Part shown: positions 63,017-63,443 of the stretch, piece by piece | How the letters are laid out: each line of letters opens with the position of its first letter | How positions within the stretch are numbered: position 1 is the first letter of the stretch | NCBI RefSeq assembly: GCF_003790525.1 | Contig: NZ_CP033635.1 | DNA: 64,000 bases | Source: Escherichia coli | Lineage (GTDB): Bacteria > Pseudomonadota > Gammaproteobacteria > Enterobacterales > Enterobacteriaceae | Direction: 5' to 3' (one strand) | The notes under the pieces: generated by a model | The model's input: the letters and a program-made list of their open reading frames with translations, nothing else | Database searches by the model: none | Told to the model about the DNA's origin: nothing | Position numbers and translations under genes: made by a program

Positions 63017-63109
63017 AAAAAAAACCGGATGCGAGGCATCCGGTTGAAATAGGGGTAAACAGACATTCAGAAATGAATGACGGTAATAAATAAAGTTAAT
63101 GATGATAGC
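63017..63109 (-). ncRNA. micF: MicF antisense sRNA (regulator of ompF)
   Basis: Minus strand reads gctatcatcattaactttatttattaccgtcattcatttctgaatgtctgtttacccctatttcaaccggatgcctcgcatccggtttttttt, which is the MicF sequence including its terminator hairpin and U-tract; divergent from ompC. Confidence 0.9.
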
Positions 63110-63443
63110 GGGAGATATTCTAGTTGCGAGTGAAGGTTTTGTTTTGACATTCAGTGCTGTCAAATACTTAAGAATAAGTTATTGATTTTAACCTTGAATT
63201 ATTATTGCTTGATGTTAGGTGCTTATTTCGCCATTCCGCAATAATCTTAAAAAGTTCCCTTGCATTTACATTTTGAAACATCTATAGCGATAAATGAAAC
63301 ATCTTAAAAGTTTTAGTATCATATTCGTGTTGGATTATTCTGCATTTTTGGGGAGAATGGACCTGCCGACTGATTAATGAGGGTTAATCAGTATGCAGTG
63401 GCATAAAAAAGCAAATAAAGGCATATAACAGAGGGTTAATAAC

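Follow-up and report, generated by a model that had tools for sequence, protein, structure and literature searches.

The interval between rcsD and ompC in the stretch of Escherichia coli DNA analysed here (the window, 64,000 nucleotides) is the E. coli micF gene together with the micF-ompC divergent regulatory region, and we consider it functionally equivalent to that of K-12 with a probability of about 97%. In an Rfam search the RF00033 MicF covariance model matched positions 63017-63110 on the minus strand with 116.8 bits (E 1.3e-18). The match covers model positions 1-94 of 94, the gathering score being 79, and it is the sole MicF match in the whole 64 kb; the Rfam check proposed in an initial annotation of this DNA thus returned a full-length match above the gathering score. 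That annotation had described a complete micF on the minus strand at 63017-63109, an ompC start at 63444 and a 334-bp region between the two genes. The first of these is borne out both by RF00033 and by a gap-free alignment to K-12 b4439 (NC_000913 2313084-2313176), which gives micF a length of 93 nt. The second agrees with the identity of the encoded protein to K-12 OmpC (91% over the first 184 aligned residues) and with the genome of strain 165, which is 100% identical across the 738 bp upstream and has ompC annotated at the same position. The third, the spacer at 63110-63443, agrees with the alignment to K-12; this upstream alignment, also proposed at the outset, is gap-free and shows two differences in the spacer, at 63115 and 63363. 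The 741 aligned bases between the rcsD start and the ompC ATG hold eight substitutions and no indels relative to K-12. This 99% identity and the E-value of the covariance model put the identification far beyond chance, and no observation speaks against it.

The order of genes at this end of the window is rcsB (minus strand), rcsD (60033-62705, minus strand, 890 aa), micF (minus strand) and the start of ompC (plus strand), and the curated K-12 record has ompC, micF (93 nt) and rcsD in the identical order. Like its K-12 counterpart, micF here is a transcription unit of its own, divergent from ompC and upstream of rcsD. The ompC ATG lies 321-341 bp from micF +1 in 98 of 121 enterobacterial loci tested. 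The G+C content of the control region is 33%, compared with 50% window-wide. The locus is already known from textbooks, and its identification brings in itself nothing new in biology. In K-12 MicF is a repressor of OmpF of ~93 nt that depends on Hfq (PMC5745476; PMC9988348). The elements of the gene are as follows.

63017-63109, minus strand: micF, the 93-nt MicF sRNA, located with RF00033 and the alignment to K-12 b4439 (one substitution).
63077-63109, minus strand: MicF nt 1-33, the antisense (seed) region for the ompF ribosome-binding site and start codon, identical to K-12 and assessed by duplex energy.
63064-63079, minus strand: internal stem-loop of MicF, nt 31-46, from the minimum free energy fold; six pairs, 99.7% paired over 103 distinct sequences.
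63017-63045, minus strand: rho-independent terminator, a perfect inverted repeat found by terminator scan, with a 10-bp stem at 63023-63045, a 3-nt loop and a U-tail at 63017-63022.
63028, minus strand: substitution C82 (U82 in K-12), from the K-12 alignment, giving G-C for G.U with G70.

In order to examine the conservation of this structure, species-representative genomes were scanned once with the MicF 5′ pattern, and 120 loci from many genera of Enterobacteriaceae were obtained. The loci were picked by an exact 28-nt pattern, so that this segment is invariant by design of the search. In the covariation alignment of 119 MicF sequences, 103 of them distinct, pairing in the two-hairpin structure reaches 98.1% over the distinct sequences, and seven pairs show double-sided changes, with six of the 10 terminator pairs changed on both sides across species. 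None of 500 shuffles reached the observed pairing and covariation, and registers slid by 1-3 columns gave only 14-38% paired. MicF itself folds as expected (z -5.4).

Two open reading frames in the six-frame list overlap micF, one at 62936-63163 (minus strand, 75 aa, TTG start) and one at 62888-63052 (plus strand, 54 aa), and one could imagine a small protein encoded here instead of an sRNA. We give this practically no credence. No CDS is annotated at micF in K-12 or in strain 165, and the 1- and 2-nt indels seen across species at nt 53-66 and in the terminator loop would break any frame. Moreover, the variation within micF is compensatory in the helices, and the covariance-model match fully accounts for its conservation.

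We also computed the pairing of the MicF sRNA with its target ompF. Since ompF and micC lie outside the window, pairing was computed on the K-12 sequences. MicF nt 1-33 paired with K-12 ompF mRNA from -16 to +11, which includes the Shine-Dalgarno (SD) sequence and the AUG, at -27.1 kcal/mol; shuffled sequences gave -11.5 +/- 2.8, and 0 of 1000 were as good. An RNAduplex calculation with full-length MicF and 140 nt of ompF was set aside, as it produced a spurious extended duplex of -39.4 kcal/mol versus -31.4 +/- 4.5 for shuffles (minimum -48). Because this value is not clearly better than that of the shuffles, the seed-restricted test was used instead. [quoted passage not shown]

Compared with K-12, micF in the window has the same length, the same position between rcsD and ompC and the same strand relation, with 92 of 93 nt identical. 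The 5′ antisense region is identical and both hairpins and the promoter elements are the same, while K-12 has U at nt 82 and A at -6 where the window has C and T. Only three bases differ between the micF 3′ end and the ompC ATG, namely 63028 (in micF), 63115 (micF -6) and 63363; the other five of the eight substitutions fall in the micF-rcsD spacer (62889, 62890, 62894, 62910 and 62931). Three of these five are packed within 6 bp of a poorly conserved stretch (CAATGAAATT versus CAACAAAAAT).

The initial annotation had suspected that the terminator stem differs from K-12 by one base, and the difference is real: the RNA strand reads GCATCCGG in the window and GCATTCGG in K-12, or, around MicF nt 82, GCAUCCGG and GCAUUCGG. 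On the plus strand, 63028 is G in the window and A in K-12. C82 of MicF pairs with G70 as G-C, while U82 of K-12 forms a G.U wobble. The terminator hairpin is consequently calculated at -15.8 kcal/mol with C82, compared with -12.9 in K-12, and the rest of the fold is unchanged. With a 93-nt query an identity of at least 99% means an exact match, so alleles could be counted directly: of 5374 complete E. coli genomes, 3231 carry the allele of the window and 2030 that of K-12. C82 is therefore the commoner E. coli allele and not peculiar to the window, and the K-12 G.U is the minority form. Pair 70:82 is also the most variable pair of the terminator across species, being GC in 51, AU in 33, GU in 19 and unpaired in none of the 103 distinct enterobacterial MicF sequences. 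G.U, as in K-12, is the classic intermediate between the two Watson-Crick pairs. The departure of C82 from the reference strain might be put down to a sequencing or assembly error, or to a strain-specific mutation altering MicF. There is next to no chance of this, since the identical 93-nt allele occurs in those 3231 genomes, O157:H7 strains included, as against only 2030 with that of K-12, and G-C at 70:82 is both the commonest state in Enterobacteriaceae and the Rfam consensus.

Between micF +1 and the ompC ATG, the control region likewise differs from that of K-12 by only two bases. The OmpR sites C1-C3, the -35 and -10 elements, the MicC site and the SD are all unchanged; K-12 has T at 63363 and the window C, at or beside the ompC +1. 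At 63028, and at 63363 if it is transcribed, the substitution replaces a G.U wobble within a helix with a Watson-Crick pair. We weighed the proposal that the three differences shift regulation, by strengthening the terminator and stabilizing MicF, by altering the micF discriminator and by strengthening the ompC 5′ hairpin, giving an OmpF/OmpC balance unlike that of K-12. The terminator hairpin is indeed more stable by 2.9 kcal/mol and the ompC 5′ hairpin by 2.0 if 63363 is transcribed. The exact micF-promoter segment of the window (63072-63160) was found in 935 of 5374 genomes and the exact ompC-promoter/leader segment (63320-63410) in 648 of 5371, so both segments are minority alleles, although for 63115 and 63363 taken singly the counts are minimum figures. 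However, all three positions vary naturally among species, every state seen at the terminator pair stays paired, and the high frequency of both terminator alleles suggests near-neutrality. A shift in regulation is therefore unlikely, and the three differences look like ordinary, neutral-seeming population variants.

Conservation of the control region was judged from micF +1 to the ompC ATG in 98 distinct sequences from other species, with a median identity of 69%. On the micF side the following elements were located.

63117-63122, minus strand: micF -10 hexamer TAGAAT (-13 to -8), placed by its spacing from the annotated +1; five of six bases at least 90% conserved in the 98 sequences.
63141-63160, minus strand: putative mar/sox/rob box ACAGCACTGAATGTCAAAAC, centred at -41.5, with one mismatch to the consensus.
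63175-63187, minus strand: exact IHF consensus AATCAATAACTTA, one of two exact matches to WATCAANNNNTTR in 64 kb.

The -10 hexamer is closely followed by the variant at 63115, micF position -6, where the micF strand has T and that of K-12 has A; this column is variable among the 98 sequences. The marbox overlaps a weak micF -35, AAAACA (63140-63145), which is a class II arrangement, and the GCAC and AAA elements of the marbox do not vary in any of the 98. Window-wide, the 20-bp marbox consensus searched (AYNGCACNNWNNRYYAAAYN) has four matches versus 1.28 expected. A match alone is thus weak, and it is position and conservation that carry the argument. On these grounds the micF promoter is, in its sequence, of the class II marbox type. 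A marbox at about -41 of micF in class II arrangement has been demonstrated structurally for Klebsiella RamA (PMC8811837), and MarA, SoxS and Rob act on micFp in E. coli K-12/BW25113 (PMC12282887).

Further into the spacer, the IHF consensus at 63175-63187 is only partly conserved, and with up to one mismatch WATCAANNNNTTR has 63 matches in the window versus 60.3 expected. IHF and Lrp may act at the micF-ompC region, with 63175-63187 as a candidate site for IHF. Two moderately conserved blocks, TTGATG (63210-63215) and GTGCTT (63220-63225), follow in the 98 sequences.

A simple sigma-70 scan of 62650-63500 missed both the micF and the ompC promoter. This is expected because both are activator-dependent, and the two promoter calls consequently rest on the K-12 alignment and on conservation. 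The scan gave two plus-strand matches, 62944-62971 and 63294-63322, versus 2.8 by chance, and neither was given weight. The first of these (TTGTGA, 16-bp spacer, TATAGT) is aimed at the micF 3′ end and would yield a micF antisense transcript; with the count at chance level it is probably meaningless.

The initial annotation had further claimed that the spacer is a control region shared by both genes and holding OmpR sites. These sites were located and are kept across species. The elements concerned are the following.

63265-63325, plus strand: putative OmpR sites C1 (63265-63284), C2 (63286-63305) and C3 (63306-63325), identical to K-12 and strongly conserved.
63250-63258, plus strand: AAAAGTTCC, a GNNNC element and the most conserved distal block; its AAGTTC is invariant, being present in all 98 sequences.

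The boundaries of C1, C2 and C3 are those we take to be correct for K-12. The three sites occupy -98 to -38 relative to ompC +1, immediately upstream of the ompC -35. They contain two copies of the exact repeat TGAAACATCT 21 bp apart (repeats phased at 21/20 bp), and the half-site register of +21/+42/+62 is kept across species. C1 is the sole match in 64 kb to the OmpR 17-mer GTTACATTTTGTTACAT at up to three mismatches. The half-site scan that had been proposed was thus informative in part: the exact TGAAACATCT repeats stand within C1-C3, while at up to two mismatches the same motif gives a count at chance level (64 matches in the window versus 59.7 expected). As the loose scans for OmpR and for IHF are both at chance level, only exact matches, position and conservation are informative. 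With its tandem 20-bp sites, each of two 10-bp half-sites, 63265-63325 corresponds in sequence to the C1-C2-C3 array of the ompC promoter. In the published architecture phosphorylated OmpR occupies C1 of the three tandem sites at low and C2-C3 at high osmolarity, activating ompC (PMC3050692). OmpR sites common to micF and ompC have been described (PMC1489923), and micF belongs to the OmpR regulon by ChIP-exo (PMC5438342).

The AAAAGTTCC element is located 6 bp upstream of C1. The spacing between its G and that of C1b is 21 bp, which puts the element in phase with all three b half-sites, C1b, C2b and C3b (+21/+42/+62), a register kept across genera. The same motif, as CAAAGTTCC, is found 6 bp upstream of F1 at K-12 ompF (positions 1700-1708, minus strand, of the ompF upstream sequence L123). 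The AAAGTTCC block could be a site for an extra OmpR protomer ('C0') or for a factor common to both porin promoters; the likelihood of this is given below, jointly with that of a second tentative reading.

On the ompC side of the region the elements are as follows.

63330-63358, plus strand: ompC P1, with -35 TTGGAT (63330-63335), a 17-bp spacer and -10 GAGAAT (63353-63358), read from the sequence and conserved.
63363-63443, plus strand: ompC 5′ leader, with a 5′ hairpin at 63363-63398 recognized by inverted repeat, fold and covariation; highly conserved throughout.
63410-63430, plus strand: MicC target site in the ompC leader, adjoining the SD, from the pairing of K-12 MicC nt 1-19.
63431-63446, plus strand: ompC SD GAGGG (63431-63435) and ATG (63444-63446), invariant or nearly so across species.
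63444-64000, plus strand: ompC coding sequence, first 185 codons, running off the window; assigned by K-12 OmpC identity and annotated in matching genomes.

In placing the ompC +1 we took the leader to be 81 nt long. The published distance of 253 bp between the micF and ompC transcription units (PMC1489923) sets +1 at 63363, and the position of the -10 allows 63364-63365, an uncertainty of ~2 nt. The ompC 5′ hairpin has a calculated energy of -16.4 kcal/mol, compared with -14.4 in K-12 (z -4.8). The C at 63363 closes it with a C-G pair, where K-12 and most species have U.G. Pair 63373:63388 changes in a compensatory manner across species (AT 60, GC 20, GT 18). The loop and 3′ arm of the hairpin carry GAGGGTTAAT, an exact copy, in direct repeat, of the true SD region at 63431-63440. 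Pairing of K-12 MicC nt 1-19 with 63410-63430 gave -22.5 kcal/mol versus -10.6 +/- 2.9 for shuffles, of which 0 of 1000 were as good, and MicC pairing in the ompC leader has been reported (PMC5745476).

Within the coding sequence the differences from K-12 OmpC occur in short patches, for example residues 47-49, 85-91 and 176-184. ompC has been described as hypervariable in E. coli. A sharp boundary of divergence is found at the ompC ATG: over the 738 bp upstream, every matching E. coli genome retains an identity of 95% or more. For the first 557 nt of ompC, only 519 genomes reach 99% identity or more, while 3833 have 90-95% and 1003 have 80-90%.

The region between the two genes had initially been regarded as the holder of the inputs to both. 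This stands for OmpR and the marbox, which lie inside it, but does not stand for CpxR, whose box lies beyond micF.

63005-63019, plus strand: perfect CpxR box GTAAAGAAGGGTAAA (GTAAA-N5-GTAAA), putative CpxR site, overlapping the last 3 nt of micF (nt 91-93).

The 64 kb contain no other exact GTAAA-N5-GTAAA (0.09 expected). On the micF strand the first half-site, TTTAC, is made from the T-run of the terminator. Of 121 enterobacterial loci, 105 have a perfect CpxR box directly against the micF T-run, and the box is the best-conserved block between micF and rcsD. Judged by its sequence, it is a site of the CpxR regulon, and GTAAAGAAGGGTAAA is catalogued as the known 'ompC' or 'rcsD-ompC' CpxR site (PMC9600279 supplements). 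The regulatory DNA credited to ompC therefore extends past the 334-bp spacer, to the far side of micF. Another candidate for a CpxR site, GTAAA-N5-GGGAA on the minus strand at 63255-63272, was dropped, since the documented ompC box is GTAAAGAAGGGTAAA at 63005-63019.

The box at the terminator could couple Cpx envelope stress to transcription of rcsDB or to formation of the micF 3′ end. We regard this reading, jointly with that of the AAAGTTCC block as an extra site upstream of C1, as quite improbable. MicF itself represses cpxR (PMC9988348), which is the context for a coupling to Cpx. A conserved TATAAC (62969-62964, minus strand) is present ~50 bp downstream of the CpxR box on the rcsD strand and could be an rcsDB -10. 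Both the AAAGTTCC block and the CpxR box at the terminator have probably been described already, as both promoters have been dissected for 40 years.

The micF loci of Salmonella, Klebsiella, Enterobacter, Citrobacter and other Enterobacteriaceae have the marbox, the C1-C3 register and the terminator CpxR box in common with the window. They differ from it in the intergenic sequence, with a median identity of 69%, and in terminator pair 70:82, which is A-U or G.U in about half of them. The micC-ompN locus, a paralogous arrangement, is similar in that, by the K-12 annotation, an sRNA is again divergent from a porin gene, and its sRNA, like MicF, represses the other major porin by pairing near the ribosome-binding site (PMC5745476). 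However, it represents another sRNA family at another chromosomal locus, outside the window, with other regulators.

Part of the value of this analysis is practical and concerns annotation. RefSeq/PGAP has no feature between rcsD and ompC in the non-K-12 E. coli genomes listed, and micF and its sites need to be added by hand to PGAP genomes. About 50 of 5426 complete E. coli genomes gave no micF match. In a few genomes the region is matched only in part, directly under features annotated as ompC or rcsC, suggesting that some strains have lost micF by deletion or rearrangement. The only other Rfam match in the 64 kb is an naRNA4 element just downstream of rcsB (RF02564, a REP-type nucleoid-associated RNA; 59280-59356, plus strand, 65.5 bits versus a threshold of 59.5).

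No chromosomally encoded regulatory antisense RNA had been described before MicF. When protein binding and regulation are taken from the literature, and identity, anatomy, conservation, covariation and pairing energies from the direct observations above, the locus would operate as follows. At micF, a good -10 and a poor -35 under a class II marbox would let MarA, SoxS or Rob bring in RNA polymerase in response to antibiotics, redox stress or xenobiotics, and the unstructured 5′ 33 nt of MicF would then pair with the ompF SD and start codon and block translation. At ompC, phospho-OmpR would fill C1 first and C2-C3 at high osmolarity, turning ompC on; the same OmpR sites, according to the literature, also stimulate micF. 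Since the sites would drive both ompC and micF, high osmolarity is predicted to raise OmpC directly and to lower OmpF both transcriptionally and via MicF. Induction of micF by EnvZ-OmpR, SoxS and MarA has been reported, as has binding of H-NS to the intergenic region (PMC5745476). The AT-rich centre (33% G+C), with its IHF consensus, is a reported H-NS target, and the ompC leader has a conserved 5′ hairpin and a MicC pairing site beside the SD. The micF-ompC region is a model for the integration of osmotic (EnvZ-OmpR), antibiotic and redox (MarA/SoxS/Rob) and envelope (Cpx) signals, and this integration sets outer-membrane permeability and antibiotic uptake.
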